NCBI GenBank assembly: GCA_001244265.2
Contig: LN717261.1
Location: 2,123,591 to 2,187,590, forward strand
DNA from: Microbotryum violaceum
Taxonomy: Eukaryota
Direction: 5' to 3'
DNA length: 64,000 nucleotides
Positions within the stretch are counted from its first letter, which is position 1, and every line of letters starts with the position of its first letter. Shown here in pieces: positions 1,971-61,171 of the stretch. A program made the position numbers and the translations under genes. The notes under the pieces are model-generated. The model was given only the letters and a program-made list of their open reading frames with translations. It made no database searches and was not told where the DNA came from.

Positions 1971-2254
1971 ACGCTACCAAATAAGAGACTGACGAGCGTG
2001 TAATCCAACCGTCAGTTAATTGCATATGATAGTAGCCGTAGTGCTAGATGTACGTACCTGACGAGCGTGTAATCCAACCGTGGAGAGAAGACAACGGTTG
2101 GTGCGCATCGCCAGGCTTCACTAAACAAACGCGCGCTTCTAATCAAATAACCGAAAGCCGCCTTCCTGCTAATCCTCATTCACAACACGCCAACTGCCCG
2201 AAGGGTTCGATGTGCTATACAAGCGTTGCTCCTTACCGCTTGGTTGGATCATAA
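1971..2254 (-). repeat. 5' LTR (~1980-2254) and PBS of Copia-1
   Basis: PBS TGGTAGCG at 1979-1972 just upstream of the gag ATG; internal 24-bp direct repeat at 1989-2012 and 2058-2081. Outer end uncertain by a few bp. Confidence 0.7.
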
Positions 2255-3470
2255 CGGTGGCTGCTACTCCGGCACCCTCGCGGGCAGCTCACGCGCCACC
2301 GGCGCCGGCGGTCTCGGTGCAAGGCAAGCGCCCCGCTCGCAACGCCAATCCGTGGGTGACTTCTGACGAGGAAGAAAGCGACGAACCGACTGAGAATCTG
2401 GCGAGGACCCACCTCCGTCAGCTCGAGGCGGAGACCCAACTCCGTCAGCTCGAGAGCTCGGCCAATCGCCTCGCTCAGCGACCGACTAAGAAGAAGTCCA
2501 AGAACCCGGCACCCCCTCCAGCCCAGCGCGCTGTAGTGTCGTACCGTCCTTCTACACTATCGCAAGGTGGTCGTGTACTCCTCGATGAGGACGATGAGGA
2601 CCAGGAGATTCCGACCGCTACATCCATTGCTCAAGAAAAGGCGGCGAGGATGTACGAGGAGACTCTAGCAGTCCCTAGCACTGCTTACTCCGAACTCCCC
2701 GGCTACGTGACACTTTGCCACGACAAAGAGGATATGTAAAAAGAAGCCTTACTACTCCCTAGAGCGCACGTCTACCGCCTAGACAGACAAGACGCCGTAC
2801 TCAAGAAGAACCACGGGTTGAAACTGGACGTCATAGAGATCATGAAGGTCCTTACCGGTCAATTTGTCAGCGCGGTCGATGCCGATAACCCAGCGCCTTC
2901 CGACTTGTTCTACATGTTCCAGCATTCCGGCAACAAGTTCTACGGAATTGAAGCGATGGTTCAATCCAAGGCTAGCGTCAAAAAGAGAACACTTACGCAA
3001 GCAGGTCACACGGAAGCCTTGATGGAGCTCGAGAAGCTCGAAGGCGTCGTGTCAACTCTCATCAAGGTCGTAACTGGCAACACAACACTTGCTTCTTGAG
3101 GGAATTGGCCCAAGACCCAGATCTCGGATTCGACTTTGTAGTCCTGTACAATGACAAGTACCATCGGAATTTGGCCGATAGAGGAAAGTTGGTCCATTCC
3201 CTCCTCGACGCAAAACTCGGTGACAGCGTCTACGCACTCTTGATCAACAAGTGGCTCACCGGCAACCAGTTCTTTTGAAGCGAGGGGTCGTCCACGGCGA
3301 ACCACGGCCCCTCGAATGCTTCGCACCCCCGCTCGCTACCGGGCAAGAAAAAGCGTAACCCCTGCATGAGGTTTAACCGAGGCAACTTCCATGATGAAGA
3401 GGCGTGCGATTATCAACATGTCTGCTCAGCTTGCAAGGGAAACCACGCAGCTTTGAGTACTCTGCACGCA
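2255..3470 (+). pseudogene. Ngaro ORF1 (gag-like), disrupted
   Basis: Broken ORFs 2212-2739, 2818-3099 and 3096-3278, ending in the Cys/His finger PCMRFNRG..CDYQHVCSACKGNH. Confidence 0.55.
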
Positions 3471-5478
3471 TCGGCAGCTCAAATTGGGAGCTCGCCTCGC
3501 AGTGGCAGCCACGGGAGCAGCAGCTGATGCTGCCGCTCGGCGCTAGATACCTCGAGGACGGCAATGATTCAATAGCCCCGGACAAATTGTCGCTTGCGGT
3601 CATCATCTCAGACGACACTGGACCTCCGGGCCACCCTTCTCTATCTCACCTGTCGGGCTTAGGACTGGCACCCAAGTACCAAAGGTCATTCCACTTCGAT
3701 CCACCCTCGAAGGATTATCCTACTACCCCACTCCTTTCCTTGATGACGTCCGTGGGCAGGCTCCCTGGACCGATACCTCGAGCCTACTTCACTCCGGAGC
3801 GTCTGGCGATTATCAAGGACACTCAACAATTGTACCCTTCCCAATTCAACTTCACTCGGACGATTAACGATCTCTACCTGGGCAAGCTTATGGCAGAGCA
3901 CCCAAACACAATCTTAGTCAACTCCTTCCTCTCCGCTCTTCGCTCGGAAGGATTCAAACCACCACACGATGGCAGCAATGCGCGTGGCAATGACCCCGCG
4001 TCGGTAAGATTTCCTAAGAACAAGCATCATCGCGAGTTCATCCAAACGACTGTGGACGAGGAAGTCAAGAAACATTGGGTCTCTCCCGGCAGCGCATTTC
4101 CTCTCCCGGGAGTCACCTACAACTTGATTTTCGTAGTCGAGTTGACCAACCATAGGATGCGTGTGGTGGCAGACCACACCTCCTCCGGTCTCAACTACGG
4201 CATCCAACGAACCAATTGCCTGACAATCTATGATACTATCATTGACTTTATCCGTCTCCTTTGCTGGCATTGGTTTGCATTGGGACTTCTTACAGACACA
4301 TTGGTTTTCTGGAAGCTTGATGTCTCTTCGGTGTTCAAAATCCTCATCATGTCCAAGCGCTGGCAGGCGCGTCAAGGCATAGCAATCAAATGCAAACTTT
4401 CGGACGGTACACTACGCACTTTGTACCACATTGAATGGAGGGGCGTGTTTGGCTGTTGCGCGATGCCCTTCCTGTGGACTAGGTTCATGTCGCTACTGAT
4501 GTGGGCGGCTCACAACGTCTACGGAATTGAACACCCCCTTGCGTACATGGACGACGCTTTTGGCATTGATCTGGCAGGATTGATGGTCGCTTACAATCAC
4601 AACGGCACGACGCACACAATTCCGGCCCAACAAGCAGCGATGGCAGCGCTGTGGACCGGACTAGGCATGCCCTTCAAGCTCTCCCCGGACAAGGCACCAC
4701 ATGGGCGGCGCATCACAATCACAGGCATCGACTGTGACCTGGACTCGTTCTCCGTGTCCCTTCCCCACAAGGCGATTGAGAACCTTGTCAGGGAAATTGA
4801 CGCATTCCTTCTTGAATCGAGCCCGCACCCCACGCTCCGCAAGTGGAGACAAATGACTGGCTGGCTAAGTTGGTCCCTCAACGTGGCTCCGCAGGCTCGC
4901 CCGTATCTTACCCCGCTTTACAAGAAGCTCGCCGGCAAGAAACGTTCCAAAGCGGGGGTGCCAATCAACACCTCGGTTGTGACCGCACTCGCAGCTATGG
5001 CAACGCTGCTCGTCGAATCTCCCTTGCTCCTGGGGACGGGTGCAGGTCTCGGTTTCTGGTTTGAGTGGAAAGGCACGGTTCACCACTACACTGTCGGCCG
5101 CAACAAACCTACAAACGTATCCAATTCGCAAAAGCCTTGACGGTTGTTCTAGCATTAGGGATTGTTACACACCCTTCCAGTCCGTTCAAGCCGCTCTCGC
5201 GAGTTCTTGTATGCACGGACTCGGCTCCGGCGGTGTACGCAGTCAACTCGGGTGCAGCAAAAGACAGCGACTTCATGCTGCTGCACACCCTCACCCTTCG
5301 ATCATATGTCATGGCCCAACACCAAAAGTTTGACCTCAAAGTCATACACGTTCATGGCAAAGGCAACACCCTCGCTGACAACCTTTCGAGGCAACACAAG
5401 GTCCAGTTTCACCGGTGCTTCAGCCCTCTCACCCATTTTGACCCCTTCATCCCCGGGCTGGAGGGGGTATTGTTATGA
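3404..5478 (+). pseudogene. Ngaro reverse transcriptase + RNase H (frameshifted)
   Basis: KLDVSSVF, FGCCAMPFLW and YMDD RT motifs; RNase H CTDS..HVHGKGNTLADNLSR in the overlapping ORF 5065-5478. Confidence 0.85.
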
Positions 5479-8400
5479 CAAACATCAGACGAGAGGACAG
5501 AAGGCTTGTCTCCTTTGTGCCCCGTCCTCTCTTGGAGCCGGCTACTCGAGCTCAGCCGATGCTCCCACTGGATGATCTTTGTCAACTACGCATCAAAGCC
5601 GCCATCCTTGCGCTTGAACCCAAAGCTCAATCAGACTACGCTCGAGCTGTGCGGCGATGGATCACTTTCATCAGCTACTACCGCGCTCAGGGCCATGACA
5701 TCATGTATCACCCCACCAAAGACATGTTGTTGGTGTTCATCCAACATCGCTTCCGTACGGTCTCCTTGGTGTACCAGACACTTTCTGGCCTCGTGTTCCA
5801 ATTCCTACCGATCATGGGGAATACATGGACAACAGTGTGCTCCTCACAACTAGTCAGAAATATTGAAACTGAACAGCAATGTGCTGAACGAGTTGGCGGC
5901 AGGGACGAGCCAATGAGTTCGTAATCAAGTAAAGATTGCAATAAAGGAGTTCTTCACATACCTGAACGAGTTGGCGGCAGGGACGAGCCAATGAGTTTGT
6001 AATCAAGTGAAGAAGAGGAGACAAAGACGCGAATTGCGCGCGCAACTAATATAAAGTGGAGAAGCGCGTAGTGCAGATTTAAGGCAAGAGTAATTTACTT
6101 CAACACCCCCCTTGCTCTTGGCCTGAAATTCGCCGAAGGCCAATAGCGTCGCAATGACGCTGGAAAATCGCTCGAGGCAGCGGCTTGGTGAAGATATTGG
6201 CCACCATCTCATGGGTAGGGATGTAGGTGACCGAGATCTCTCCATTTCGAATGTGCTCCCGAACAAAGTGCTCCAACATGCAAAGGTGTTTGGTGCGAGC
6301 ATGGAAGACCGGGTTCTGGGTGAGCGCGATAGCGCCTTGATTGTCTGCAAGCAGACGAAGGGGCGACAATGTGTCAAGGCCGAGCTCGGTGAGGAGCAAG
6401 CGAAGGAAGACTGCCTCCTTGGCAGTGTGCGAAAGACCCAGATACTCGGCTTCCGTAGACAAACACGCCACTCGGGGTTGGAGACGGGATGACCATGATA
6501 TCGCGCCACCAGCCAGTTTGAACAAGTAGCCTATCATTGACCTCGACATGTTCATGTCAGATCCCCAGTCCGAGTCAGAATACCCCTCGTATCCCAGCAA
6601 GGGCTCGTTGTTAGCCATGTAATGGATGCCCAGATCGAGCGAGCCTTTGATGTACCGAAGGACGCGTTAACCCCGCTTTTCCAACAAACCGAGAGAGATA
6701 CCCCACAGCGTGTGCAAGATCGGGTCGGGTGGCAACAACGGCGTACATGAGGGAGCCGATCATAGAACGATACATCGAGTTGTCGGCTTCATCGGGGTCG
6801 ATCTTGGGCGACAACTGGAGGTTGGCCTCCATTGGCGATTTGCAGGGATTGCAATCGGACATGCCAAAACGAGCCAACACGTCGACAAGGTATTGGCGCT
6901 GCAGGAGTGTGATCCCGCCATCATCATGCCGGACAACCTGAACCCCTAGAATCCAGTCAGCCGGGCCGAGACGTTTTACGCCATAAAGGGTGTCGGGTTG
7001 ATCCAGGACTCGATCGATCTCCCCAAGGTCGGGACCAAAGAAGAGGAGGTCGTCTACGTAGAGCGCGATGTAGTGATCACCCAAAACGTCGGCACGCCTA
7101 TAAATGCATTCATCGCAGGCGAGACGGCGGTAGCCGAGATTCGCTAGAGTGGCGTTGATCATATCGTTCCAGACTCAACCGGCTTGCTTGAGCCCGTAGA
7201 TGGAACGGTGAAGACGGAGGCACTTGCCGTCATAGCCTTCGATGCCAGTGGGGACGCGTATGTAGATCTCTTCCTCCAGGACGCCGTGGAGGTAGGCCTT
7301 GTCCACGTCGGCTTGTATGATGTGGTGGCCCCTGGAGGCTGCATGCGCGACGAAAGCGCAAATGGAGGTGAACTTCGCCGTTGGTGCAAACGTCTCGTCA
7401 AAATCACCTGCCCGCTGTGCGCATCCCTGAGCTACAATGCGGCTCTTTAACGACACCATTTTGCCCACCTTATCGCGTTTGGTCCGAAACACGTGGCAAC
7501 TCGGCAAGATAGTGGCTGCCCTGGGAACGGAGGCAAGGTCGACCATGCTGAACACCTTGAAGTCGTCCTTCATCGAGCGGAACTCCTCAATGGCACCAGC
7601 TTTCCAACCTTCTGCATGAGGGTGGCGCATGGCTTCCTTCCAAGTACTGGATCGCTGGTGGGAAGCGTGAAAGGATCTTCGGGCTCGGAGAGAGGACGGT
7701 CCGCCTTCGAGACATCGATGCCGGCCTCCGCAAGATTGGCAACTAGCGCAACAACCTCGTTGCCGAGTGAGAATGCAAAGGCAGAAGGCGTCGAGCGCAA
7801 GGATGCGAGGGCTCCGTACCGAGCCGGCGGATTGCGCGCACGTGGGCCTGCGGGTGGCTGCCAGGCCGGGCCAGGGGCGTCGAAATGCAAGGCAGCCGGT
7901 GGGTCAACGTGCTCGGGGGAATAATGACGACCCCGCTGTCGTTGTCCCCCGCGGCCGGAAGCGGGGGCGCTCGGATACCCGTTGTTCAAGCAGGGAAGTC
8001 GTCCTCAAAGAATGTGACGCTGCGGGACTTGAAGACCTGTCTCGTGTTGGGGTCCAGCAGTCTGTACCCCTTGGACTCGAGGTCGTAGCCGACGAAGATG
8101 AGTGGGATGCCTCGCGGATCGAGCTTGCTGCGCGGCTCGGTGGTAGCGGTCTTCCACGCTCAACAGCCGAACACGCGTAGATGGCCAGCTGAAGGTTTGG
8201 AACCGTACCAACGTGTGTGAGGCGTGGTGCCCAAGTTTGCAGAGTGCGGCGAGCGATTTTTGACGTAGACGTACGTTGCCAATGGCTCGGCCCACAAAGC
8301 GTGAGGTAGGCCCGACTGGTGGAGCATTGAGCGGACACCCTTGGTGATCGAACGATTCACACGTTCGGCGACTCCATTCTGTTGAGGCGTGTCAGGGATA

Positions 8401-8915
8401 GAGAGCTGACGAGTAATGCCTTGCTCCTCCAGGAATCTGGAGAACTCGTTTGACACCCCCATTATCCGAGCGGACAGCAAGGACTTTGCGTGACGTGGAG
8501 CGCTCCACCTTCGCGAGCCAGGATTTGAAGGCCGCAAAGGTGTCGGACTTGTGTGACATCGGAATTGCCCACAAATACCAAGAATGGTCGTCCACAATGA
8601 CGAGAGCGTATCTTGCACCCCCTAATGACATGGCACCGTCGAACGCAAGGAGGTCCATGTGGACTTGTTCGAGCGGCTGAGCAGAGCAATCCGATGCGAA
8701 ATTGGAAAACAAAGGAAAGTTTGGCTGAACTGAGAATTGAACTCAGGTCCACTCTATTAATCAGAGTTGCAAGGGGACTGCCGCCTTTGTTTTCTTGAAG
8801 GGGACAGTAGAAGTCAATGTGACCGTGCACCAGTCCGCCCGCCATGGCTCCCAATGTGTGGTAGAACCACCGCCGGTGTGACTTGGGTGCACCGTCATAT
8901 TCATCTATTCCTACT

Positions 8916-8987
8916 GGTTGAGTAGCTCAGCGGTCAGAGCAACTCTGATTAATAGAGTGGACCTGAGTTCAATTCTCAGTTCAGCCA
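8916..8987 (+). tRNA. tRNA-like cloverleaf in TRIM LTR1 (probably not a functional tRNA)
   Basis: Acceptor GGTTGAG/TTCAGCC, D arm GCTC..GAGC, anticodon stem ACTCT/AGAGT with loop GATTAAT, T arm CTGAG-TTCAATT-CTCAG; A and B box-like motifs. Confidence 0.75.
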
Positions 8988-9220: not shown

Positions 9221-9292
9221 GGTTGAGTAGCTCAGCGGTCAGAGCAACTCTGATTAATAGAGTGGACCTGAGTTCAATTCTCAGTTCAGCCA
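9221..9292 (+). tRNA. tRNA-like cloverleaf in TRIM LTR2
   Basis: Copy of 8916-8987. Confidence 0.75.
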
Positions 9293-11733: not shown

Positions 11734-14703
11734 GCTTGATGAACAAGAGCAGCGACGTCGACGAGCGAGGCCTGCATGTGGTAAAGTCCGTTCTTGAGCT
11801 CGCCAGTGTGACACACCGTGTTGGCAATGGAGACCGTTGCCTTGGCCCGAGTCAGACGGATGTCGTAACCCCCGATGTCGGCACGACTGGCGGAGAACAG
11901 GTTGAACGGAGCGGTGGGCACGAACAAGGCGTCGTTGAGTTGGCCGATGCTGCCGTCGAAGGAACGAACGATTGCGGAGCCGACGCCTTTGATGGAGTTG
12001 ACAACTTCACCAGTGATACCTTCGAGCGGAGCTGGCTTGCACTTGCGGAAGGACGTGAAACATGCGCAATCGTTGACGATGTGGTGCGTCGCCCTGCTGT
12101 CCAGGATGATGGAGGGCCTGGCCAAGGTGGACATCGTGGCTGTGAGGTAGCCAAGCACAGGACCGTCAACCAGCGTCGAGATATCAGGCGCAGTGACGAG
12201 CGAGGCGGAAGGGCTGAAGGAGCCTTTGTCTTCTTCCCCTTGGACCCAGCCTTGTTGTCCGGGCACTTGCAATTCCAGTGTGGACCTCCGCAGTGGTGGC
12301 ACGGGGAGAAAAGAGGCGCGGTAGACTTGTCCGCTGTCGCAATCGGGCTTGCCACCATGGCGACGGGTTTGGGAGCTGGCGTCTGATCCGCCTGCGTGTG
12401 GAGCGACTGGAGGACCTCCGTCGGGCTTGGTAGCCTATCCAATCCTTGCCGAAGTGTTTGCGTGTAGTATTCACGGTACAGATCCTTGCCGAAGTGGACA
12501 AGGCGGAACGACACAATCTGCTCGAAAGTAAGCTCGTGTCCCGAGAGCGTGTTAAATAGCTCAATGGTTGTCGCTTGGTACTTTGCGAAGGCGTCCATGC
12601 CGGTGGGAGGGGGTCCCACGTTGAGCAACGCTTGGAGACGGATGAGAATGTCAGCCACCATGCCGGTACCGACCGCCTTCTTGATCATCTGTAAGACTTC
12701 CGCAGGAGTGTGGTCGTAACCATCCTTTATGTGTTTTCGGATGTCCGGTGAGACAGAACGCATCAGCAGCGCGACCGCTTGGAAATTGGCGTGATCGAGA
12801 TCCGTGCGCGTGTTGGGTGATTGGACGGGCGTTGCGAGGGTGCAGTTCCAATAGTCGCCGCCAAGGGTGCCTCGCACGTCGTCGATCCATTGCGACCAGC
12901 CCCAGCGTTTCGCAGATGGCATGATGGGTCAACATTGCGTGGTTTGATGAGGACGATAGGGGTTGTTCCCCCTGTGACCATGAGAGGAGTGCTCATGCCT
13001 TGATGACTCGAATTGGCTGGCCGCTCGGTTGGGCTTGTAACCTATTGAAACTGAACAGCGATGTGCTGAACAAGTTGGCGGCAGGGACGAGCCAATGAGT
13101 TCGTAATCAAGTGAAGAAGAGGAGACAAAGACGCGAATCGCGCGCGCGACTAATATAAAGTGGAGACGCGCGTAGTGCGGAGTTAAGGCAAGAGTAATTT
13201 ACTTCAACAAGAAACACAATCATTGGCGGTATCAAGCTTAAACGTCGAGCTCGGAAGCAAGCTAAACCACTAGGCTTCCGCTCCGTGGCCCTTGTATTTC
13301 GCACGGCGGGGGCACTCCGGGATCTGGACTACGACTCGCTCCTGTTCCTTGCGATGGTGTCTCTAGGTTTCGCGCCGTGTGCACGGAGTGCAGAGCTCAC
13401 TGTTCCCTCAACAATCCGTTTTCGGGATCCAGCCAAACTCCCGCAACGCAGCACAGTGAAGATGGACTCCAATGGCTTCTCAGTCCATCTTCCGTACCAC
13501 AAGGCAGACCGCCGTTGGCAAGGGTCGTTCCTGTACTTCACACCCTGCACGACGGATCCAGCCTTCCTACGCATCCTGCATCGCTACCTGCAGGCCCGGG
13601 ATAGTCGGAACAAGTCCTCCGACCTGCTGTTCTTGACAAGGGGAGGTCTCCCACCCACCCGCACCTGGTTCATTGGCCGCCTCCATCGCACCTTCGGATC
13701 AGCTTACAGTGGACACTCTCTTCGAGCCGGGGGTGCGACTCACTATGCTCTGCAAGGTCTCTCGGCGGATATCATCAAGCGGCTCGGGTGTTGGTGCTCG
13801 TCCGCTTGGGAGCCGTACATCAGGGTTTCCCCTCAACTGCAGCAAGCCCTCCTCAACTCAGCATGAACCCACATCTTAGATCTGCCAATCATCACCACAA
13901 TTACACAATACGGGATGCCTGGTTCTTATGCTGCAAATCCGACTCCATCCCAGCTATTTCGGTTCACATTGCACTCTTACGATGGAGTTGATGGTCTTTT
14001 CTGCTTTTGCTGCAAGAGTTTGATGTCGAGGACTCAAGCGCGTGCGACCTCTACCCTCCTTGCAGTAAGCTGTGCTCGCACGCCTGCCCCTCTTGCAATA
14101 AGCTGTGCGCCGCACGGCCTGCCCTTCCTGCAATAAGCCGTGCGCCGCACGCCTGCCTCGAGCCTTGGTCTGTAAGGTGCACTTGCGCAAGAGTTTACCA
14201 AGCCAGCTCCTGCCGCACCTTTCAGTTCCCACTGCTTGCCGTTGCCGTACCAGTATTGCTGTGTACCTCTGCCACCTCCTGCCAAGGTCAGTGGCCTTCC
14301 TTGAACTCTTCCTGCCGCTAATTGGCTGACAGGTTCCGAGCTTCTCACAGGACCCCTCCAGCAATACCGTACAGCTTCCGCCTTCCAGTCTTCTGCCTTA
14401 CCAGTTGATGACGAACAGCTGCCACTGTGTACGCCTCTCTTTTTCAACACTCCTTGTTGGATGGTTGACTGATGCTCCATACTTTGTATGCAGCCATCCG
14501 CCTGCACCTGCCAGTGCTGCGCCTCTTTCGGGTTCGACTGCGTCTCGCTCAAAGAGCCGAGGTACATCACCCACCTTCAGGCTCTACCTTAGGGTACTCC
14601 TACTCTCGACTGTCCTTGTTGGACACGTTGACTGACTTCGCTACCTTGCTACACAGACCCAACCTCGACGTATCAGCGTCCGAGGTCTGTTTTCCTTTGC
14701 TGT

Positions 14704-17283: not shown

Positions 17284-17385
<102 letters not shown>

Positions 17386-19031: not shown

Positions 19032-22000
19032 TATGAGGCGCCGGAGCTAACATGAGCGCCGCAGAAAAAAATAAAAAAAAAGACGAGAGAAGAAAAAATA
19101 AAAAATGACAGCACAGCACAGTCATGCCGCAAGGTCGTCCGTCATGACCCATGGCATGGCATGACTTCCCTCCAATCCAGGGGACAGAGAAAGCTCTCTT
19201 GGATCTCAATTGTAGCCATCAGCTCTTCTGTACCCACCTGAGCTGAGCCTGCTGCTGTTACTGCTGCAGCGCTGCTTGACCTGAGGCCCGCACCCTCCCG
19301 CACCCAGCGCCCACGCGCCCAGGCAACCGCCTCGAGTTCGGCCTGGATTTGCCTCTTTTCCTCCTGCCACTCTCTTCCCCTTGCCTCTCGTGATAAAAAT
19401 GAACAACTCACCATCTGGTTTGACTGACGATTTGTTCAGCTTGGCCTTGAACTCCAATACGGCTTCTTCTTTTGGCGCTGCAACCGCTGGCGATGCACCT
19501 TTTTCGGTGCAACAACATATTGACCGCGTGTCGGGGCTCGTGCCTGACTCTTCCCAGCCCACTTGCGCCCTCCTTTTCTCGTTGCTCAACCGTCCGCTCA
19601 GCCTCAACCTCAACCTCAAGCTTCACTCACTCCAGCTCAACAGCTCGAAATGATGAACATGGTGGTAACGCTCCAGAAAATGAACAATAATTCGCTGCCA
19701 TGGCTGCCAAAATCGAAGCTCGCCAAGCCAATCTACGCTCAATTGAACAACGCGCGATGGCTTTTGGCAAGACGGAAGCTAGGGTCGCGGCTGAGAAACG
19801 ATTTCCAGCAGCAAATCTGGAGCTGATTAACTCTCAGAACCCGGGTCTAGAGGAAACAGGTCAGTCTCGTCAATTCACGTTTGCCTTCCCTTGTTCCGTG
19901 TCCCATTGCTGATCTCTTGGCTCTCGGTTTCGTAGACTGGATCCGCAGTAAGGTGCCTTAGCCTTACGTTAACGACCGTTCAAATCCCTTGGAATCCGGC
20001 TCGACTCTTTCCACATCCTCAAGTCACCCCTTGTCCATGCCTCGGGATCAAGCTCAACTCTTTTGCAGTCGTCGAGTCGCGCCTCGACCACTTGTCATCC
20101 AGCTCTCGCCGCACCATTGCCCGACCTGGCTTTTAGCCAATCAACCTTGAGCGATGCAAGGACGTCGCGATCATCTCCGGTACATGGGGATGATTGCAAT
20201 GGGGGTAGGCTCTTTACACCAGCGGCACGCTCGGCGCGTGGCCGGCTGAGTTCCGCTCAGCTAGGGCTCGATAAATCCTCTTCGCACACCCCCTCCCCCG
20301 CCGAAGCGATGCACTTGATGCCCGCTCGTAAGGAGAAGAGCAGGAAGGGCAAGGGCGTGCAAAGATTCGCACGTGGGAAGTGTGAAAGTGCGACGACTGC
20401 TCAAGCGGTGGTAAGGCTCTGATTGACGGACCAAAGAGACCAGACCAAGAAGTTGGTTTGTTACACACCTGCTCAAGCACTACAGTGAGTTATGATAGCT
20501 AGTAAAGGTAAAGGCAGAAGGTAGTGTAGTGCTCACCTGCTCAAGCGGTGGTAAGGCTCTGATCAACGGACCAAGGAGACCAGACCAAGAAGTTGCTTGA
20601 GCAGGAGAGAGAGAGGCGCGGAGCCAGTTGGCTTGGGTGAGCGCGCGGCTGGTCCAAAAGGAGGTAAGGTGAGACCAAGAAAAGGAGACATGATGCAAGA
20701 AGGAAACACAGGAGGTTGTCAATCTCACCCCCCCTCCCCCCCCCCCGACTTCGAGTATCAGGGAGAGCAGACACCAAGTCGACTGCAATGCCGAGCAAAC
20801 AGATCGCGAGACAAAGCCTTGGTGAAGATATTGGCCGTCATCTTGCTGGTGGCGATGTACTGGACACTGTTGTTGCCCAGGGAGACCATATCCTGGACAA
20901 AGTGTTCGTGGAGACGAATGTGCCGAGTGCGAGCGTGGAAAACCGGATTCTTGGTGAGAGCATTGGCACCTTGGTTGTTGCCATAGATGAGGACAGGTCG
21001 GGAGGAAGGAAGCCCAAGCTCACCAAAGAGCTGACGCAGGAAGATAGCCTCCTTGCCACCATGTGACAAGGCAAGGTACTCGGTGTTGCAAGTAGAGTCA
21101 GCAACCCGGGACTGGAGGCAAGATGACCATGAGACGGCCGCGCCTGCAAAGACAAAGGTGTAAACCATGGTCGACTTTGAAGATAGGACGCAAGCACCCC
21201 AGTTACAGTCGGAGTAGCCAACCAAGGGCGCTGGATCCCCGCAAGCGTTGCGGAGGCTGTGAGACAGAGTGCCAGCGAGGTAGCAAATAGCGTGCTTGAC
21301 AGCGCCCCAGGCAGCGGCAGATGGTGACTGAGACAACCGAGCCAAGTAACCGACGGTGTGGGCCAGGTCGGGTCGAGTACTGGTTGATGCGTACATGAGG
21401 GAGCCAATTGCCTGCAGGTACCGAGTGTGATCCGGGAATGGGGTGGGCTGAAGCTCGACTTTGAGGCGGAGATTGGCCTGCATGGGTGTGGCAACAGGGT
21501 GGGCATCGGACATACCAAAGCGAGCGAGGACGTCCTTGAGGTACTGCTCCTGACTGAGGGAGATGGCGCCATCTGCAGAACGCTGAATCTGGATACCAAG
21601 GATGTACTCTGCCTCACGAAGGCGTTTGACACCATGGAGCTGCTCAAGGCCCTGGAGGGTGCGCTCAATCTCTGGGAGGGAAAGGCTGATCATGAGCAAG
21701 TCATCAACGTAGAGCGCAATATAGTGGCGCTCATCACCAGCAGTTCGGACATAAACACAGTGGTCAGACTCTGTGGCGACATAGCAAAGAGCCGACAAAG
21801 CGGAGTCGATCTTGTCGTTCCAGATACGTCCAGCCTGGCGCAAGCCGTAGAGGGACCGGTGCAGCTGGAGGACCTTGCCGGACATGTAGATTCCTTTGGG
21901 CACACAAATGTACAGAGGTGTGTCCAGTTTACCGTGGAGATAGGCCTTGTCAATGTCAGCCTGGTGGACGTGGTACCCATGAGCGGCTGCAAGGGCCAGG

Positions 22001-25000: not shown

Positions 25001-27928
25001 CACGAAGGAGATTGGAGGGAGCGAAGGCTGCGACCTGCGTGGGTGGGCAAGGTGGGGGAACCGCGAGCGTTGTGGCGGGGCCGACGGACTTAGTATCGCC
25101 GGCCGCATCAGTGTCGTCACTCCGCCAGGCTGGGCCGTGCGAAGGGCGCAAACAATTCGACAGGCAAGGGCGGACACGGTGGTGGCCGCGCTGGTAGGTC
25201 GTATGGGCTGATAACCTGTGAAAGTGCGACGACTGCTCAAGCGGTGGTAAGGCTCTGATTGACGGACCAAGGAGACCAGACCAAGAAGTTGCTTGAGCAG
25301 GAGAGAGAGGCGCGGAGCCAGTTGGCTTGGGTGAGCGCGCGGTTGGTCCAAAAGGAGGTAAGGTGAGACCAAGAAAAGGAGACATGATGCAAGAAGGAAA
25401 CACAGGAGGTCGTCAATCTCACAGGAAGCAAGCAGAAGAAGAGGAAGACTGGGGGAAGAGCGCAAGTGTTGATGTGCCGGGACAACAACGACAACAAAGC
25501 GAGCGAGGATGATTCACCATCGTCGGGACTTTCGGAATCAAGTGCGGAGAGGCGTCAAGTTCAGGACATCCTTGCGGGGAAGCAAAGGATTCAGGAGATG
25601 GTTCTAAGTTTGATCCGAAGAGGGATCAGAGGACAAAATGTTACCTCCGCCGCCGCACTTTGGTCCGAGCGACAGCCAAGGGAGGTGATTGAGCAACAGA
25701 TGCAATCACTTGCCGACTCAAGGGAACATGCTACCGTTAGCTCTTCGACCAAACCTCCAGAAGATCTCACTTGCCTTGCTACCCCGCCTTGTTGAACGCG
25801 CCTTCGGATGTTTTTTTCCCCTCGACGCTCGGAACAAAACTCTCGTCCCCCGCGGCCACGAGACTAACCATGCGTTGTAAACTAGCGAGTTCGGGTTGAA
25901 AGTATAGACATTAATTCGTAGCATGTACCAAATTTTGACTCTTGTGCGAGACAGAGACGATCGGCGCATCGGCGACACTGTGCGGCTGTCACTTTGTCAC
26001 TCGGACGAGGCTCAGCTTGGATCATCAATTCCAGCTAGCGAGCGATAGGGTATGATTTCAAAAGCTGTCACATTGCATGGTTCTCTTCCGACCATTGAAC
26101 AGCCACCAAATACCTCCGCCGCGCCTCCTCAATCTCAAGAGCATTAGATTGGAAATCTTGAACTCAGATCTCCTCGAATGGCGCTTTCTTGGCTTGTTCG
26201 TCCAGCCGTCCAGCAGTTTGTCGCCGATTTTCGTTCCTAGGGCATGCTGACCGCCGTCTTGAAGGTGGGTGGGAACAGGCACCAACGTAGCCATCTCGGG
26301 GCGTTGGGCACTGAAGGGGGACCGCAGCAGACGTAAAGCGCCGTCGTCAACTCTCAGCGCTCAGCCACTCGACGCCTCCCGAGGGCTGAACCACCCCAGA
26401 GTTGGAGGATTTTTTTTTCTCGCGAGTAGTCTTGTGTGATTTTAATTTTTTTCCCTGCGCGCGCGCGCGATTCTCGTGTCCCCAAAGGTATGAGGCGCCG
26501 TTGCAATCACGAGCGCCGCAGAAAAAAGAAAAACGAAATGCGCGCCGCGCGAGAAAAAAAAAAAAAAAAAAAAAAGTCCTCGACTCGGACGTTGCCCCTC
26601 GGGAGCAGTCGGGAGCTCTGAAGCTCCGAGTCGCCGAGTGGCTGAGAGGTGACGAGTCTTTGTCTGCTTCGGTCCCCTTGAGTGCCCAACGCCGCGAGAT
26701 GGCTACGTTGGTGCCTGTTCCCACCCACCTTCAAAAAGAGCCTACCCCCATTGCAATCATCCCCATGTACCGGAGATGATCGCGACGTCCTTGCATCGCT
26801 CAAGGTTGATTGGCTAAAAGCCAGGTCGGGCAATGGTGCGGCGAGAGCTGGATGACGAGTGGTCGAGGCGCGACTCGACGACTGCAAAAGAGTTGAGCTT
26901 GATCCCGAGGCATGGACAAGGGGTGACTTGAGGATGTGGAAAGAGTCGAGCCGGATTCCAAGGGATTTGAACGGTCGTTAACGTAAGGCTAAGGCACCTT
27001 ACTGCGGATCCAGTCTACGAACCCGAGAGCCAAGAGATCAGCAATGGGACACGGAACAAGGGAAGGCAAACGTGAATTGACGAGACTGACCTGTTTCCTC
27101 TAGACCCGGGTTCTGAGAGTTAATCAGCTCCAGATTTGCTGCTGGAAATCGTTTCTCAGCCGCGACCCTAGCTTCCGTCTTGCCAAAAGCCATCGCGCGT
27201 TGTTCAATTGAGCGTAGATTGGCTTGGCGAGCTTCGATTTTGGCAGCCATGGCAGCGAATTATTGTTCATTTTCTGGAGCGTTACCACCATGTTCATCAT
27301 TTCGAGCTGTTGAGCTGGAGTGAGTGAAGCTTGAGGTTGAGGTTGAGGCTGAGCGGACGGTTGAGCAACGAGAAAAGGAGGGCGCAAGTGGGCTGGGAAG
27401 AGTCAGGCACGAGCCCCGACACGCGGTCGATATGTTGTTGCACCAAAAAAGGTGCATCGCCAGCGGTTGCAGCGCCAAAAGAAGAAGCCGTATTGGAGTT
27501 CAAGGCCAAGCTGAACAAATCGTCAGTCAAACCAGATGGTGAGTTGTTCATTTTTATCACGAGAGGCAAGGGGAAGAGAGTGGCAGGAGGAAAAGAGGCA
27601 AATCCAGGCCGAACTCGAGGCGGTTGCCTGGGCGCGTGGGCGCTGGGTGCGGGAGGGTGCGGGCCTCAGGTCAAGCAGCGCTGCAGCAGTAACAGCAGCA
27701 GGCTCAGCTCAGGTGGGTACAGAAGAGCTGATGGCTACAAATGAGATTCAAGAGAGCTTTCTCTGTCCCCTGGATTGGAGGGAAGTCATGCCATGCCATG
27801 GGTCATGACGGACGACCTTGCGGCATGACTGTGCTGTGCTGTCATCTTTTTCTTTTCTTTTTTTTTTCTTCTCTCGTCCTTTTTTTCTTTTTTTCGCGCG
27901 AAACTCGTGTTAGCTCCGGCGCCTCATA
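19032..27928. mobile_element. Long-TIR (foldback-like) element containing Copia-3
   Basis: Near-identical inverted arms 19032-20215 and 26735-27928; ends TATGAGGCGCC..GGCGCCTCATA; GGGGGG flanks both ends. Confidence 0.7.
20381..25423 (-). mobile_element. Copia-3, full-length degenerate Ty1/Copia element
   Basis: LTRs 20381-20729 and 25217-25423; TSD GGAAG; PBS GGTTATCAGCCC. Contains gag, WLLDSGAN, integrase IRSDNGGEF, RT YVDD and RNase H YSDCNW, broken by stops and frameshifts. Confidence 0.95.
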
Positions 27929-33876: not shown

Positions 33877-34099
33877 TGTAAGGCCCGTGCGCCTGGGCCT
33901 TAGGAAGAGGGGACGCGCGCCTGGGCACTCTTAGTCTCTCTCCAGCGACTGATACAAGTGTCCAGGTGAGCACAAGGTGGATCAGAAGGCATTGTCATAC
34001 CAGCGACTGATACGAGTGTCCAGTGTCAATTCTACATACTTTGGTCCTGTGATCCTTGTCGTCGTCGCTCAGGTGTACACTCCAACGGGGTGTATTACA
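33877..34099 (+). repeat. Gypsy 5' LTR
   Basis: TGTAA..TTACA followed by C-poly(T); 24-bp internal direct repeat. Confidence 0.8.
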
Positions 34100-50604: not shown

Positions 50605-52691
50605 TGTCATTATATGGTTGCATCGTCCTTCAGTCTACGTATAGTACCTGTGATGGTACTTCATCTTGAGCCTCTAGCGACTTCATGAATCCCTTCAGCA
50701 CCTCATTTGTCTTACCCTTTTTTAGTCACTATTAGCTCTTTATTATCTCCGCTTATCATCCCTTCCTAGTCCTTCTGGAGTTTGTCCCTTAGCCTTTGGC
50801 CACTCTGTTCTCGTCCCGTTCCATTGGACTGAGTCGTGGTCTTCATCAGGTATGCATTCTCTGGAATCCTACTCACTCTGTTCTCGTCCCGTTCCATTGG
50901 ACTGAGTCGTGGTCTTCATCAGTTACCACATGAGAACATTTTGACAATAGGTTATGAGCCCAACGAGCTACCAAGCTGCTCTCGAGCCTTCGTCTTCCGC
51001 CCTCATCTCTAGGATCCACCTTAGCGACAATCCGAACTCGTACGAAGAATGGTCCGTCTGGATCAGCAACCATCTTCGTCGCAAGAAATGTTTGGATGTC
51101 ACAACTGTGGGCATTCCTGCCCTGCTAGCGATCTATGAGGCCGCCCTTGTCACCCCGTCCACTTCGCAAGCAACCTCCGCAGGCGCAAAGATTTCACCCG
51201 CCGCGCCTCGCGCGCTCACCTCTGCTCAGCAAGGACTTGTCGACATCTACACCCTTGATCTTGAAGCCAAGGATGACAAAGCTGCTGAGTTGATCAACAA
51301 CACAATTACCGGTTCTCAAATGAAGATTATCAAGAATTGTGTTTCAGCCCATGAGATGTGGACCGCCCTACGGATTCACCACACCAAAGGCGCTGAAGCT
51401 CGCTTCATCCAGCTCATCCCCGTCATCTTCCGGAGCACGTTCACGCGTTCCAACACGTCCAATTTCAAGTCGTTTGTTTCCAACTTCCTAAACGCCGTTG
51501 AGGAAATCTCCACTATGGGTGTTCCACTGCCTGGTTTTGCGCAAGCCGCTCTACTCGTCCATTCGCTTCCGCCCGAATGGGAAAGTATTGCAAGTAGCCT
51601 TACTACCAACCTCACCCTCGCTACAGACATTGATTCGTTCATTGCTGTCCTCTACGCTCAAGTTGATCGCAAAATGGCCTCGTCTTCTACTACTCATGGA
51701 GCCGAGCGCCACGCTTACGGGGGGATTGAATCCGCGCTGGCTATGTCCGCGCAAAGTCACGATCACTCCAAGGTTCACTGCAAGAGTTGCAACGTTATGG
51801 GGCATAGTTCCAAGTGGGCTGGTTGCCCTTCCCTCAAGAAAGCGCAAGCAGTCAAGGACGAAGCAGCCAAAGCTATGTTTGTTAACAGCGCTTTCTGTCA
51901 CTCGCTTTAATCGTCACAAGTCCTCATCCTCACAAGTCCTCGTCGTATCGGTCTTCTTCAAGCCGATCACCCGTCCAAGTTTCGTATCGGTGTCTCTTCA
52001 TCAGCCCGATCAACCGTCAAGTCGTATTGGTATTCTTGCCAATCACCGTCCCCGTCTGCGAACATGATGGCTTCGTACACCAGCCCTTCGCTCCAAGTCC
52101 AAGTAGTGCCAACTAGTCCACCAGCGTACTCTGGTTTGTTGGCTTCCGTCCCCGCATTTGGTTATACTGGTCCCTTTCAGATCAGTTCTCCATCCCGTTT
52201 TATGGCGTCATTGTCCGTCATACCGCCACCCGTCTTCGGCCCTTTTTACCCGAACAAGTCCCGTCGCTTTCGGCTTTACCCGATCTCGTCAAAAGTCTTC
52301 GACCATGTACCGTTTACTCCATCTTCGGACCTTCCAACCGGGGGAGTGTCATTATATGGTTGCATCGTCCTTCAGTCTACGTATAGTACCTGTGATGGTA
52401 CTTCATCTTGAGCCTCTAGCGACTTCATGAATCCCTTCAGCACCTCATTTGTCTTACCCTTTTTTAGTCACTATTAGCTCTTTATTATCTCCGCTTATCA
52501 TCCCTTCCTAGTCCTTCTGGAGTTTGTCCCTTAGCCTTTGGCCACTCTGTTCTCGTCCCGTTCCATTGGACTGAGTCGTGGTCTTCATCAGGTATGCATT
52601 CTCTGGAATCCTACTCACTCTGTTCTCGTCCCGTTCCATTGGACTGAGTCGTGGTCTTCATCAGTTACCACATGAGAACATTTTGACAATA
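50605..52691 (+). mobile_element. Gag-only non-autonomous Copia-type LTR element
   Basis: 345-bp LTRs 50605-50949 and 52347-52691, apparently identical; TSD ATGCA; PBS GGTTATGAGCCC; PPT GGGGGAG; no pol. Confidence 0.95.
50954..51910 (+). CDS. Copia-type Gag
   Basis: 318-aa ORF with SAHEMWTAL, LLVHSLPPEWE and the knuckle CKSCNVMGHSSKWAGC. Confidence 0.9.
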   Translation: MSPTSYQAALEPSSSALISRIHLSDNPNSYEEWSVWISNHLRRKKCLDVTTVGIPALLAIYEAALVTPSTSQATSAGAKISPAAPRALTSAQQGLVDIYTLDLEAKDDKAAELINNTITGSQMKIIKNCVSAHEMWTALRIHHTKGAEARFIQLIPVIFRSTFTRSNTSNFKSFVSNFLNAVEEISTMGVPLPGFAQAALLVHSLPPEWESIASSLTTNLTLATDIDSFIAVLYAQVDRKMASSSTTHGAERHAYGGIESALAMSAQSHDHSKVHCKSCNVMGHSSKWAGCPSLKKAQAVKDEAAKAMFVNSAFCHSL

Positions 52692-56562: not shown

Positions 56563-59500
56563 TGTTAAAAGTGGGGTCTGAGAGCCTAACTCATTGCTAT
56601 TAGTCTTGGTTAATACTTTATTCTGCGCGCGCGCCTATCTTTGTCTTTGCGTCTTTTTTCCTTCTGGGTTCCTTCTCCACGCTATTCTCATCATCTCACT
56701 CGTGTATCTCGGAGCTGAGTTGTGGAGTACCTCTTAGTCCTTGTTGCAACAGGTTATGAGCTCAACGGGCGAATCCGACTTCCCCAACGGGTCGGGCAAT
56801 CACTTGTATCTCAAGGACACACAAGGGTACAAGAGCTGGTCACAACGTGCGTTTATCAATCTTCGAGCCGACAAAGTATGGGATGTCGTCAATCAATCCA
56901 TTGACCCCCTTTTCGCGGACTATCGGTCCACGCTCGTTATCGCACATGCAACTGCGTCCGTCGCGCCAGTTGAACCAGCCTCCTCCGGCTTTAGCGGGCT
57001 TGGGGGGGCTCTGGTTCTGAGCACTCGGACGCCTCGCCCAGGCTCACCAGCGTTCAAGTTGCGGACAAGGTCGCGGAATATCGCGAATGGGCCATCCGCC
57101 GCAACGATTTGGCATGCAAGTACATCGCCAATTCGATCTCTGAGGAACAGATGTCTCACTTGATTCATCTTACCTCGGCGTACGAGATGTGGGACACCCT
57201 CCGTGGTCTGCACTCTCACGGTCGCCCGAGTCGCACTATGGACCTCCTCAACACTCTAGCGCAACCTTACTCTGGGGATATTCCTTTTAAGGAATTCGTC
57301 AACAAGGTCAAGATCGCCATGACCGATTTTCAGAACCTCGGAGCTCCGCTTCCGCATTGGCTGTTTGCAGGCATGCTCGTTCGGTCGCTCCCAGCCCAGT
57401 ATGACTCGATCGTTGGGAACCTTGCCTCCGACATCGACATCCACATGGATTGGAACACGTTCTATCCGAAACTCCTGATGAACGTCGAAATGGCTGATTC
57501 CCGAAACAAACAAAAGGAATTGTTATTCGCTCGGATCATTGACGATACTAGCCTCGTCGCCCGTATTTCCACCACGGCGCAAAAGGACTACTCCAAGTCG
57601 TATTGTTCGCGCTGCAAAGCACTGGGACACGAGCGTGGTTGGCGTCTCTGTCCAAGCAGGAACAAGGATGCGAGCGCTCCCGCTTCCTCGGACTCAAATT
57701 TGAACGTAGCTGCCATTGGTGTAGATGAATCTGCATTGATGACCTACACTTTCCCCTATTCGCGAACGATGCCACGTTTTCCATGGATCATTGACTCGGG
57801 TGCTAAGGTCCATTGCGTTGGAGACAAGTCGGTCCTATCGGACGTTGTCTCTGAGCCTCTCAAAATTTATGTCGCCGATCAATCTCAAATCGAATCTCCC
57901 GGTCATGGCTCAGTGACGTTTCTTACCTCATATGGCGCTCGTATCACCATTAAGACGGTCTACTACATGCCCGGTGCTCAATGCGGTTTTATCTCCATCG
58001 ACCGTCTGTTGGAATCGATGACGTACGCTGTTGGTCCCCAAAGCAATCTCATTTTCAGCATCCGCGGCAAGTCGATTCTGCGCTCGCTTCCTGGTCGGGG
58101 GTTTGTCATGGATGCAGCTCCCGTTCAGCCTATCATGTCATCCTCACCGCCTTCAATGGTCGGAGCTAATCGTCTCACTGGAACCTGTACGTTGATGGAA
58201 GCACATCGGAAGTTGGGCCATCAATCTCCTACGGCGATCGTTTTGGCCGTCAAATCCGGGGCTATCACTGGCATCACTCTGAAGGACCAAAAGGTTACTC
58301 CTTGCTTCTCGTGCATCCAGGCCAAGTCAAAGCGATCACCCTTCTCCAACGAGAGTACCGAAGCGCCTCATGCACTCTACCGCGCCTTCATTGATCTCGG
58401 GTTTGTCGAACATCCCAATCACCATGGCAATACTATCTATCTCGCTATTGTGGATCAGTATTCGACGGCTAAATGGACGATCGTGCTAAAGGACAAGAGG
58501 GCTGAGACGATTATCGAAGCATGGTCGAAATTTCAAGCCGAGTCCGAGCGTCACACGGGTCAGAAAATCAAGAGGGTCAGATCGGACAATGGTCGTGAAT
58601 TCGACAACTCATTGTTCCGGGCTCTTCTTGAAAAGCAGGGCATCATCGTGGAATTCACGGCCCCCTATACTCCGGAGCAAAATGGTCAAGTAGAGCGACT
58701 CAATGGATCTCTCATGGGTCTCGTTCGATCAATGCTCCTTGACTCCGGTCTTCCCATGCGATTCTGGTCAGATGCTCTGGCCGTCGCGACATTTGTTCTC
58801 AATCGTCGACCACATCCTCGTATTCAAGGAAAAACGGCAATCGAAGTTCTTTTCGGCAAGAAGCCTAGTCTTGCTCATCTTCAGCCATTCAGATCTACGG
58901 CGTTTGTCCACGTTCCCAAGGAGCGTCGCTCCAAGCTTGCACCTCGCTCCATTCAGGGAGTTTTCATCGGGTACTCCGGTGAATACAACTACCGTGTCTG
59001 GGTCCAATCGTCGAAATAGGTCTACGTTTTGCGTCACGTCACATTCCTTGAGACTCCTTCCGTTGTCACTTCGTCTCAAGATTGTGCGGACACTTCTGAT
59101 CCTGTTCATCATTCTCAACCTCCTCATCCTCCTCATCCTCCGCCAGATGTGTTGCCGTCTACACCAACTTCACCTGTTGTGGATCCAACTTTGCTGGATC
59201 CACAGCCTCCTCCGGTGGTTCCAATTGGAGTTGGTCAACAGGGGGGGTATCTTGCAGTCGTTCCTCGTAAGGATGACGACAATGACGACAACGATGGACC
59301 TGATAACTATCATGACGCAGAAGAACCACTCGGCGGTGAGGCGGAAGTCGCTCTCGCTCCTTGTGAAGGTTACGCCATCGTTTGCACTGGTCCAAATCCT
59401 GGCCAATTCGAGAATGTTGATCCTTCCAACATCCTTCCTGATGGTTCTCGTCGTTGACCTCAACCTCTGGAAAATATACTTCCCATCATTTTGGCTATCA

Positions 59501-60748
59501 TGGTCGATGTCTTGGATACTCCACCCATGTTCCACGACAAGCTTTCCTACAATGCCTACTGTGCTGCCGTGTTTGCCGAAGAAGACATCAAGATACCCAA
59601 GACATTCGAGGAAGCCATGAAGTCACCCTATTGCAACCATTGGAGTGCGGCAATGGTCTCACAACTTCTACAATTCAATCATCATGGAGTCTTTCAGGAA
59701 GTCAAGTGGCACGAAGGAATTCGGGTACTCGGCACGATCTGGGTCTACAGTATCAAGCACAATGCAAACGGCAAAATCATTCGTTTCAAAGCTCGTCTCG
59801 TTGCTCAAGGATTTGCTCAACGCCCAGGCATCAACTACCATGACACCTACGCTCCTGTTGCTCGTTCTTCGACGATTTTGTTCTTGATTGCTTTGGCTGC
59901 TGCTCAGGGCCTGTATCTCGAACAGTTCGATTTCGACTGCGCCTTTCTCAACGGCAAGATGACCGAGGATGTCTATGTTCGATACCCAAAAGGATGGGAT
60001 TGTCCTCAATCCCCTGGCAAGTGCCTCAAGCTCGTGGGTTCCATGTATGGCACCAAACAGGCGCCCCATGAATGGTATCGAGCCGTCAACAATCTCATGG
60101 TGTCTCGAGGCTACATGAGGGCAACTGCCAATGCTTGCCTCTACATCAAACATTTGGGCACTTCGTTTGCTATCATCACTCTCTATGTTGACAACGGTCT
60201 CATTGCGTCCAACAATCAGTCCTTCTTGGACTCCGAGCTCGGATCGCTTCACAAGGCCTTCCAGCTCAAGCGTCTCGGACCCGTCTCCTACTTCCTGGGC
60301 TTCGAAATTCATCGCACCAAAGATTACATCCTCGTTCACCAAAGCAAGTATGTCCGCACTATGCTCGAGAAGTTCGATTTCGCTTCTCCATCCAAGCGCC
60401 GTGCAGTCACACCCATGGACGATCGCCCCTCGCTCTGAATCGATGCTACTCCGTTTGCCGATGTGTAATTGTACCAATCGGCTGTGGGTTCCCTGCAGTA
60501 CGCGTCCACTTGATGTCGACCCGATATCGCGATTGCTGTTCGTGCCGTTGCTCAAAAGAACTCCTGTCCAACTGTCGACGATTGGGCTGCGGTCAAGCGT
60601 ATATTTTGCTACCTCAACAGCACCATCGATTTGGGAATTCTTTATCGAAACAGTTCCACAACTCAATTGATGGTCTACTCCGATGCCTCGTTTGCGGATG
60701 ACCCGGAATCTCGCAGATCGGTGGGAGCCTATGCATCAATGCTCGAAG
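56563..60748 (+). mobile_element. Copia-5, 3'-truncated degenerate element
   Basis: LTR 56563-56751 (TGTT..CAACA), PBS GGTTATGAGCTC, gag, WIIDSGA, VRSDNGREF, RT (YVDN) and the RNase H start YSDASFA, then cut off. Confidence 0.92.
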
Positions 60749-61171
60749 GTGGTGCGTGTGTGGGCGTGCTGGGCTGTGCTGGGGCTGGGGGTGTGCGTGC
60801 TATGGTTGTGGGATCGGCTTACCTTGACCGATCTGGGCTAGTCGATGGGTTCGATGGTTCGACTACGGCCGGGCCTGATGAACGTAGGCCGTATCGTCGG
60901 GGTACCAATGAACTCGACGTTGTCAAAAAAAAAGTGAAAGGCACGAGATCGCTCTCGAGCCTCACTGGCGACCTAAGCTGACAGATGCAAGTTCTATGAT
61001 TGCAACTAGCTTCTGGTGTCAGCCCAATCATCTACGAGAGTGCTGAGATATGGAACACCAGTACTCACCTAGCATCTGGTGTCAGCCCCATGAGGAGGGA
61101 ACTGAAGAAGCTAGGTGCGCGCGATCTCTATTTCTAGTGCCTGTGGCCCGTAGTAAGGCGCGCGCCTTACA
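60749..61171 (-). mobile_element. Gypsy-like 5' LTR (60935-61171) plus short leader
   Basis: Reverse strand reads TGTAAGGC..CTTTCA then C-poly(T), as in the LTR at 33877; 3' end matches the solo LTR at 14704. Confidence 0.75.

Follow-up and report, generated by a model that had tools for sequence, protein, structure and literature searches.

Long terminal repeat (LTR) retrotransposons in a 64-kb stretch of Microbotryum violaceum DNA (64,000 nucleotides (nt) of contig LN717261.1, assembly GCA_001244265.2, positions 2,123,591 to 2,187,590 of the forward strand; hereafter the window) carry within their LTRs intron-like segments bracketed by a direct repeat, X, and in at least one family, that of an LTR at 61 kb, the LTR intron is real. 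The arrangement, X-GT..X, is present in six LTRs, those of the elements designated Copia-1, Copia-2, Copia-3, gypsy and gag-only and the 61-kb LTR (Table 1). We put at roughly 0.4 the probability that these are genuine LTR introns whose retention or loss is decided when the first strand is transferred via the X repeat. On this proposal they are short spliceosomal introns in the R/U5 part of copia- and gypsy-type LTRs, spliced from the 5′ end of the RNA and rebuilt in each replication cycle by way of strong-stop DNA that pairs with the copy of exon 1 inside the retained intron of the 3′ LTR.

The X-GT..X layout was described in a first-pass annotation of the window and is borne out letter for letter at all six sites. 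Read in element sense, the first copy of X ends in YAG and is directly followed by a GT donor, while the second copy has the same YAG end and is followed by a short U5. The repeat spans 20–59 nt, and the predicted intron, which runs from the GT through the whole second copy, measures 58–140 nt as compared with 66–79 nt in RNA-verified introns of host genes. In every case the arrangement lies 3′ of the promoter-like LTR part and 5′ of the primer-binding site (PBS), always in element sense, and the GTRNGY donors together with the YAG ends constitute the borders of GT..AG spliceosomal (U2-type) introns at 6/6 sites. The first-pass annotation had most donors matching those of the host RAT1 introns or the fungal consensus. 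All of them do fit the general GTRNGY pattern, but among the six host donors verified by RNA (GTCAGT and GTGAGT twice each, GTGAGA and GCAAGT) an exact counterpart exists for GTGAGT alone. Host introns have ACTGAY or CTAAC branch motifs 17–26 nt before the acceptor. A CTGA-type motif is found 13–23 nt before the predicted acceptor in four of the six LTRs, at 13 nt in two of these and hence short of the host range. In the gypsy, gag-only and 61-kb LTRs the motif is host-like (ACTGAT, ACTGAG and GCTGAC respectively) and lies within the second X, 13–17 nt before YAG; the ACTGAC of Copia-1 spans the junction of spacer and second X, 23 nt before the YAG acceptor, and Copia-2 and Copia-3 present weaker branch candidates only.

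The frequency of this arrangement is confirmed to be far beyond chance. A scan of the window for direct repeats of at least 18 nt, 20–250 nt apart and with a spacer between the copies, from which the AT-rich satellite at 62.4–63.2 kb was left out, gave 18 raw loci that merge into 16, or 15 when both gag-only LTRs are counted once. The signature AG|GT..AG, in which X ends in AG, GT follows the first copy and the second copy ends in AG, is present in 6 of these 15 independent repeats, giving a binomial probability of 1.1e-9 at 1/128 per locus. Exact repeats of at least 18 nt at the range of the scan number 13 in the real window and 0 in 50 first-order Markov simulations. A common origin of the six spacers was considered and rejected, the lowest shuffle p among 15 pairwise local alignments being 0.057.

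Splicing is supported directly by RNA for the 61-kb LTR. Contigs of a DNA run (X1) and of three runs of initially uncertain kind were compared with positions 43400–61240, a stretch that takes in the gag-only and 61-kb sites, the other four sites lying outside it. One of the three, X13, is RNA, since it contains GT..AG joints in the RAT1 gene and its neighbours that are absent from the DNA run and since the intergenic interval 52920–53514 is near-empty in it (depth 3.5, against 226 in the DNA run). In X13 a single contig of depth 143.7 joins position 60993 to 61069 and skips 75 nt; the joint does not occur in the DNA run, and the skipped segment has CT..AC ends when read on the plus strand, corresponding to GT..AG (GTGAGT..TAG) in the sense of the element. 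The predicted donor at 61068 is matched exactly, while the acceptor in this joint is not the predicted 61006 but 60994, 12 nt beyond the second X. The 75-nt joint represents splicing because recombination between the copies of X would skip 63 nt, and only three letters overlap at the joint. An exon–exon junction present in RNA and not in DNA is in this way found for one of the six sites. The gag-only element is also expressed in X13, where an interior contig covers 50920–52376 at a depth of 393. A further RNA run, X18, comes from a relative diverged by ~5%, and a 10-letter loose end in it fits a single-X form, being too short to count. Six host introns were verified from RNA in the same stretch, four of them in RAT1.

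Intron-less counterparts of these LTRs are present in the same window. The 5′ LTR of Copia-2 equals its 3′ LTR minus exactly one X plus the spacer, 78 nt (159 matches, 8 mismatches, no gaps), and the 5′ LTR of Copia-3 equals its 3′ LTR minus exactly one X plus the spacer, 140 nt; in both the single X runs straight into U5 and then the PBS. The repeats of these two asymmetric elements measure 47 and 59 nt, and since their target-site duplications match, each element represents a single insertion. The solo LTR at 28383–28657 is a single-X relative of the gag-only LTR, and the Copia-4 LTR, which aligns to the 3′ part of the gag-only X, looks like another. Such LTRs fit the product expected from splicing followed by reverse transcription. 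The youngest element, gag-only, whose LTRs are identical, keeps the intron in both. When the 5′ LTR of Copia-4, the solo LTR and the uncertain 61-kb LTR are excluded, four 5′ LTRs have the intron and two are without it, against three with and none without among the 3′ LTRs; these counts are too few, and a systematic 5′-minus/3′-plus asymmetry was dropped from consideration.

The two copies of X within an LTR are nearly identical, with mismatches at 6 of 223 positions over the six families, a divergence no greater than that between the paired LTRs of the same elements (8/167 in Copia-2; 4 mismatches and 4 gaps in 208 in Copia-3). The earlier view that X is unrelated between families needs correction, for the gypsy and 61-kb LTRs are diverged homologues: both start TGTAAGG, and their alignment has a shuffle p of ~0.007 for U3 by itself and a z of 7.7 for the complete LTRs. 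What stands is that their repeats differ, at 8 of 20 aligned positions, with the same version in both copies within each family. The spacers of this pair show no significant likeness beyond the donor region (p 0.16), and an ancestral intron is likely to lie behind both LTRs. The gag-only X also differs from that of its solo-LTR relative. Near-identity of the two copies within an LTR while X diverges between related LTRs is what would be predicted if the second X were copied from the first at strand transfer; either this applies, or there was a recent, independent duplication in each family.

The working that we propose starts from an LTR plan of U3, first X (the end of exon 1), a spacer beginning with GT, second X (branch region and YAG acceptor), a short U5 and the PBS. 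The template for reverse transcription would be an RNA spliced at its 5′ end. With the 5′ copy of the intron removed, minus-strand strong-stop DNA would represent X in direct continuity with U5; LTR sequence would be present near the 3′ end of the RNA as well, with the intron retained there, and pairing of the strong-stop DNA with the second X of that 3′ copy would cause spacer, first X and U3 to be copied again, rebuilding the intron in the new LTRs and overwriting the second X from the first in each replication cycle. Pairing with the first X instead, or slippage between the copies by reverse transcriptase or DNA repair, would give intron-less LTRs. An LTR intron would be recoverable from the 3′ copy because the LTR is the only transcribed segment which the RNA carries twice, and pairing of strong-stop DNA with the intronic X would explain why the second X stands directly before U5 with its last AG as acceptor and why the two copies are identical. 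What the element might gain from the intron can only be conjectured; candidates are an expression that depends on the intron and the control of 5′ polyadenylation.

A self-restoring intron had been suggested in the first-pass annotation, and splicing in one family, the intron-less forms, the identity of the two X copies and the intron-free coding regions all speak for it. Several observations weigh against the strand-transfer proposal, all of them, like the case itself, drawn from one 64-kb window. In the sole case verified by RNA the acceptor lies 12 nt past the last AG of the second X, and progeny of this isoform made by the proposed route would be without those 12 nt, which the 61-kb copy retains. 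The shorter side of the same joint is 27 letters long and the spliced RNA consequently includes at least 7 nt 5′ of the 20-nt first X, which speaks against a transcription start at the 5′ edge of that copy unless it reflects read-through from upstream. Since only 3 of these 7 nt match the sequence upstream of the second X, full-length strong-stop DNA would not prime there, and the transfer would have to be premature. In Copia-2 and Copia-3 the target-site duplications are intact and yet the LTRs are unlike, the 5′ without and the 3′ with the intron; strand transfer alone does not yield such a pair, and because reverse transcription normally makes identical LTRs, a second event has to be added. 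This might be one deletion during plus-strand strong-stop synthesis, or a repair in which spliced RNA or cDNA serves as template for the transcribed 5′ LTR. Intron-less LTRs do not in themselves prove splicing, because recombination of DNA or reverse-transcriptase slippage between the X copies can produce the identical sequence. The RNA comparison reaches two of the six sites, and at one of these, gag-only, contigs cannot bridge the intron because X (49 nt) is longer than the contig word length, which we take to be 31, a value that the ends of contigs at repeat borders fit. It is on account of the more distant acceptor, the extra 5′ sequence and the additional event required by the asymmetric elements that we go no higher than the probability given above.

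Another account, which we regard as rather unlikely, accepts the LTR introns as real and has the elements replicate through unspliced RNA as retroviruses do, the X repeat being a scar, of one aberrant strand transfer or duplication for example, that now promotes precise loss of the intron. Repeat-mediated loss is evident from the single-X LTRs and from the asymmetry of Copia-2 and Copia-3, the verified acceptor beyond the second X and a spliced exon 1 reaching 5′ of the first mean that X is not exactly exon 1 in the 61-kb family, and a branch of the contig graph at X, as judged from contig ends, fits the presence of unspliced forms in the runs. Such a scar offers, however, no reason for the second X to end exactly at the position of a YAG acceptor in 6/6 cases, leaves unexplained the near-identical copies in six families with X diverging between related LTRs, and would have to be recent six times over. 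The position of the second X before U5, and the use of its end as acceptor, would follow automatically if that copy were made anew repeatedly, strong-stop DNA from the spliced 5′ end landing, with scant homology or none, close to where a 3′ LTR that retains the intron ends and thereby placing a copy of the 5′ exon after the retained spacer. The spacer of Copia-3 (20456–20536, minus strand) repeats the final 10 nt of X once more, with GTGTGT directly after them, suggesting that such a process happened twice. We nevertheless hold repeated landing to be improbable, as none of the spacer/second X junctions shows the A-run or filler that copying of a poly(A) tail would leave and a rare event would be required in six families.

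It is also conceivable that the intron serves mainly to control polyadenylation, a cap-proximal donor suppressing the poly(A) signal of the 5′ LTR via U1 small nuclear ribonucleoprotein, with the repeat incidental. The donor does lie within the LTR shortly 3′ of the promoter-like region, U5 is very short, and foamy viruses provide a precedent (PMC3694450). This function would leave the repeat and the identity of its copies unaccounted for and is compatible with restoration by strand transfer, not exclusive of it; as the whole explanation we give it a small chance. Short duplications do occur in LTRs and the stretch compared with RNA leaves out 4/6 sites, which would allow a functionless duplication of the R region whose splice-like signals are accidental. 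That GTRNGY follows the first X and YAG ends the second, in element sense, in 6/6 LTRs (binomial 1e-9), and that one of these donors takes part in a canonical RNA joint, bring this possibility close to refutation.

Repeat-bracketed LTR introns appear to be undescribed as a phenomenon: full-text literature searches, with supplementary files and subscription journals outside their reach, found no description of such an intron or of its restoration by strand transfer. Known systems share individual features. The Rogers model derives new introns from tandem duplication of an AGGT-containing segment and is similar in that the new intron closes with a copy of the upstream exon end and in that the sequence is back in single copy after splicing. 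It requires, however, that the first bases of the intron duplicate those of the downstream exon, and the LTR spacers match nothing downstream of the second X; compared with the window by blastn-short they match nothing beyond themselves except for one 13-nt self-match in Copia-3, and an origin of this kind was rejected. An introner-like mobile intron was likewise rejected, the spacers being unrelated and the bracketing repeats variable (20–59 nt) rather than a fixed-length duplication. The terminal repeats of DIRS, Ngaro and PAT elements follow a related logic: with split direct repeats, or with a complementary region inside the element, reverse transcription can restore parts missing from the RNA template from internal copies of terminal sequence. 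These are tyrosine-recombinase retroelements and involve no intron, whereas the elements described here would, if our proposal is right, be integrase-type LTR elements with the repeat inside the LTR. Deltaretroviruses have their major splice donor within R. In foamy viruses too the major donor is in R, affecting poly(A) site choice (PMC3694450). Both groups share with the present elements a donor within the LTR that is present at both RNA ends; in these viruses the acceptor is far downstream and the genomic RNA unspliced, whereas here both donor and acceptor are in the LTR and the intron end copies exon 1.

RNA-supported introns inside LTRs have been reported from maize, where spliced LTR-contained transcripts are claimed by the authors as, to their knowledge, the first evidence of introns within LTRs (bioRxiv 10.64898/2026.05.08.723830). 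These introns are long (mean 1303 bp) and occur in non-coding LTR-only transcripts, and the accessible part of that preprint does not describe them as repeat-bracketed or linked to replication. The nearest analogue in logic is the split-intron retroviral vector (Ismail et al. 2000, via PMC3182074), in which copying of the LTR creates in the provirus a functional intron that the packaged RNA does not carry as such. Such vectors are man-made, with the donor in the 3′ LTR and the acceptor outside the LTR, and, as far as the excerpted account in PMC3182074 goes, show neither a bracketing repeat nor an intron that is cyclically removed and rebuilt. What ordinarily becomes of introns in retroelements is illustrated by Tto1, from whose cDNA engineered introns are lost (PMC3061985). 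In Cryptococcus neoformans introns are stated to be needed for gene expression (PMC5851062); our literature searches found nothing on intron-dependent expression in Microbotryum.

The elements themselves are assigned from Pfam domains, with RVT_2, rve and copia-type gag marking the open reading frames (ORFs) of Copia-1, Copia-3, Copia-4 and gag-only as copia-type, and RVT_1/RNase H/integrase marking the pol gene at 34187–37726, a 1179-aa ORF 5′ of which the gypsy LTR lies, as gypsy-type. The nearest relatives of the Copia-3 polyprotein are named Microbotryum proteins of 80–89% identity, which points to an anther-smut fungus or a near relative as host. Coding regions of the elements are uninterrupted by introns (ORFs of 1179 and 681 aa), as compared with the four verified introns of RAT1. 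LTR pairs, purine tracts and 5-bp target-site duplications are found in Copia-2, Copia-3 and gag-only, while Copia-1, the gypsy element and the 61-kb LTR each have a single LTR in the window. In Copia-1 the second X is followed by a 9-nt U5, the PBS-like TGGTAGCG and a gag-pol ORF that continues to the window edge, and the 61-kb LTR abuts Copia-4 sequence at 60967/60968. The second X is 9–27 nt from the PBS in copia-type LTRs. A PBS of the form GGTTAYNAGCYC, which we take to be the complement of the initiator-tRNA anticodon stem-loop, is common to Copia-2, Copia-3, Copia-4 and gag-only, and a tRNA-like contig adjoining the PBS in run X18 fits the interpretation of this site as a tRNA-primer site. 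Viral contigs scanned with the gypsy pol gave zero pattern matches, and metagenome contigs scanned with the Copia-4 gag-int gave 18 pattern matches with 0 confirmed.

Table 1. LTRs and RNA-verified introns in the window. Positions are those of the window; mismatches are between the two copies of X.
Feature	Position (strand)	First X	Predicted intron (length; donor)	Second X	X length; mismatches	Other features
Copia-1 5′ LTR	1989..2081 (−)	2058–2081	1989–2057 (69 nt; GTACGT..CAG)	1989–2012	24 nt; 0	
Copia-2 3′ LTR	5861..6105 (−)	5962–6008	5884–5961 (78 nt; GTATGT)	5884–5930	47 nt; 1	Purine tract before; target-site duplication TTTCT after
Copia-2 5′ LTR, intron-less	13043..13209 (−)					Single X; 23-nt U5; PBS GGTTACAAGCCC; target-site duplication TTTCT
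Copia-3 3′ LTR	20381..20728 (−)	20537–20595	20397–20536 (140 nt; GTGAGC)	20397–20455	59 nt; 3	Target-site duplication CTTCC
Copia-3 5′ LTR, intron-less	25217..25424 (−)					Single X; 16-nt U5; PBS GGTTATCAGCCC; target-site duplication CTTCC
Solo LTR, gag-only relative	28383..28657 (+)					Single X; CCCAA on both flanks
Gypsy LTR	33879..34098 (+)	33942–33965	33966–34023 (58 nt; GTGAGC)	34000–34023	24 nt; 1	
Gag-only, non-autonomous copia-type element	50605..52691 (+)		50850–50922 and 52592–52664 (73 nt each; GTATGC)		49 nt; 0	LTRs 50605–50949 and 52347–52691, 100% identical; PBS GGTTATGAGCCC; target-site duplication ATGCA
Copia-4 5′ LTR	56564..56751 (+)					PBS GGTTATGAGCTC; no X-GT..X
61-kb LTR	60968..61170 (−)	61069–61088	61006–61068 (63 nt; GTGAGT)	61006–61025	20 nt; 1	RNA-verified intron 60994–61068
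Host introns, RAT1/XRN gene and neighbours	43427–43495, 43865–43930, 45724–45793, 46552–46626, 50376–50454 (+)					RNA-verified
Host GC..AG intron	48062–48129 (−)					RNA joint in X13; donor GCAAGT; branch motif CTAAC

Pyrimidine-rich tracts end at the first X in most of the LTRs. A GCGCGC-type motif, usually with such a tract after it, is present ~20–50 nt 5′ of the first X in five intron-bearing LTRs out of six, the gag-only LTR being the one without it, and also in the Copia-4 LTR (approximate positions 2150–2160, 6040–6050, 20640–20650, 33915–33925, 56625–56635, 61115–61125 and 61155–61165); it may be a shared promoter element of the host. The interior of Copia-2 (8000–12000) has a G+C content of 37–47% as compared with ~55% elsewhere, and its fragmented ORFs fit the mutational decay of a repeat. 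In Copia-3, dropping the first 67 nt of the predicted intron would remake a donor at the junction, a nested or recursive arrangement of splice sites, and the element is bracketed by a 1.2-kb inverted duplication, 97.8% identical, at 19032–20215 and 26735–27928.

In the 61-kb LTR a stretch of 12–13 nt 5′ of the first X (61106–61118) is 92% complementary to the end of X plus the first following bases, at both copies (61066–61077 and 61002–61014), and could occlude the donor in RNA; by a rough estimate, complementarity of this length is within chance for a 520-nt region. Self-priming complementarity in gypsy-type LTRs was rejected, an inverted-repeat scan giving arms of 10–13 nt only, judged to be at the level of chance. 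Upstream of the 61-kb LTR, the region 61250–62200 (minus strand) contains 287-nt tandem units, each with an intron-like GTGTG..CTAACTGAC..CACAG, and also has a 46-nt tandem repeat with GTGAGT..ACTGAT..CAG; this region may form the inner part of a non-autonomous element that has several introns.

Pfam also identifies in the window the RAT1/XRN gene and a homeobox gene. The latter, of KN type (48909–50345, plus strand), is directly 5′ of the gag-only element in a transposon-rich stretch, and its surroundings could be a mating-type (HD) region. The AT-rich satellite (62430–63200) has a 7/14-nt period with ~22 or more units and is flanked by longer repeats at a spacing of 98–207 nt. Two copies, ~90% alike, of a ~165-nt repeat (30481–30529 and 42638–42731) end in tandem 14-nt units GCGCCAACTCAAGT, of which the copy at 42.6 kb has more, and show no intron-like signature.

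Retroelements that replicate via spliced RNA should lose their introns, and how one is kept where splicing is efficient and perhaps needed is an open problem. The strand-transfer mechanism is plausible and testable, and it is unproven. Even without it, the occurrence in five or six families of LTR introns bracketed by a repeat, with confirmation by RNA for one of them and with precise intron-less alleles alongside, is a new and testable observation, and X-GT..X beside a PBS is a simple signature that can be searched for in other fungal genomes. If the mechanism is true, an intron is kept despite replication via spliced RNA, several families have converged on the same layout, and the position of the intron in the LTR only is explained. 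A repeat that rebuilds an intron would then add a new trick to the replication of ordinary LTR elements and would be the natural counterpart of split-intron vectors.

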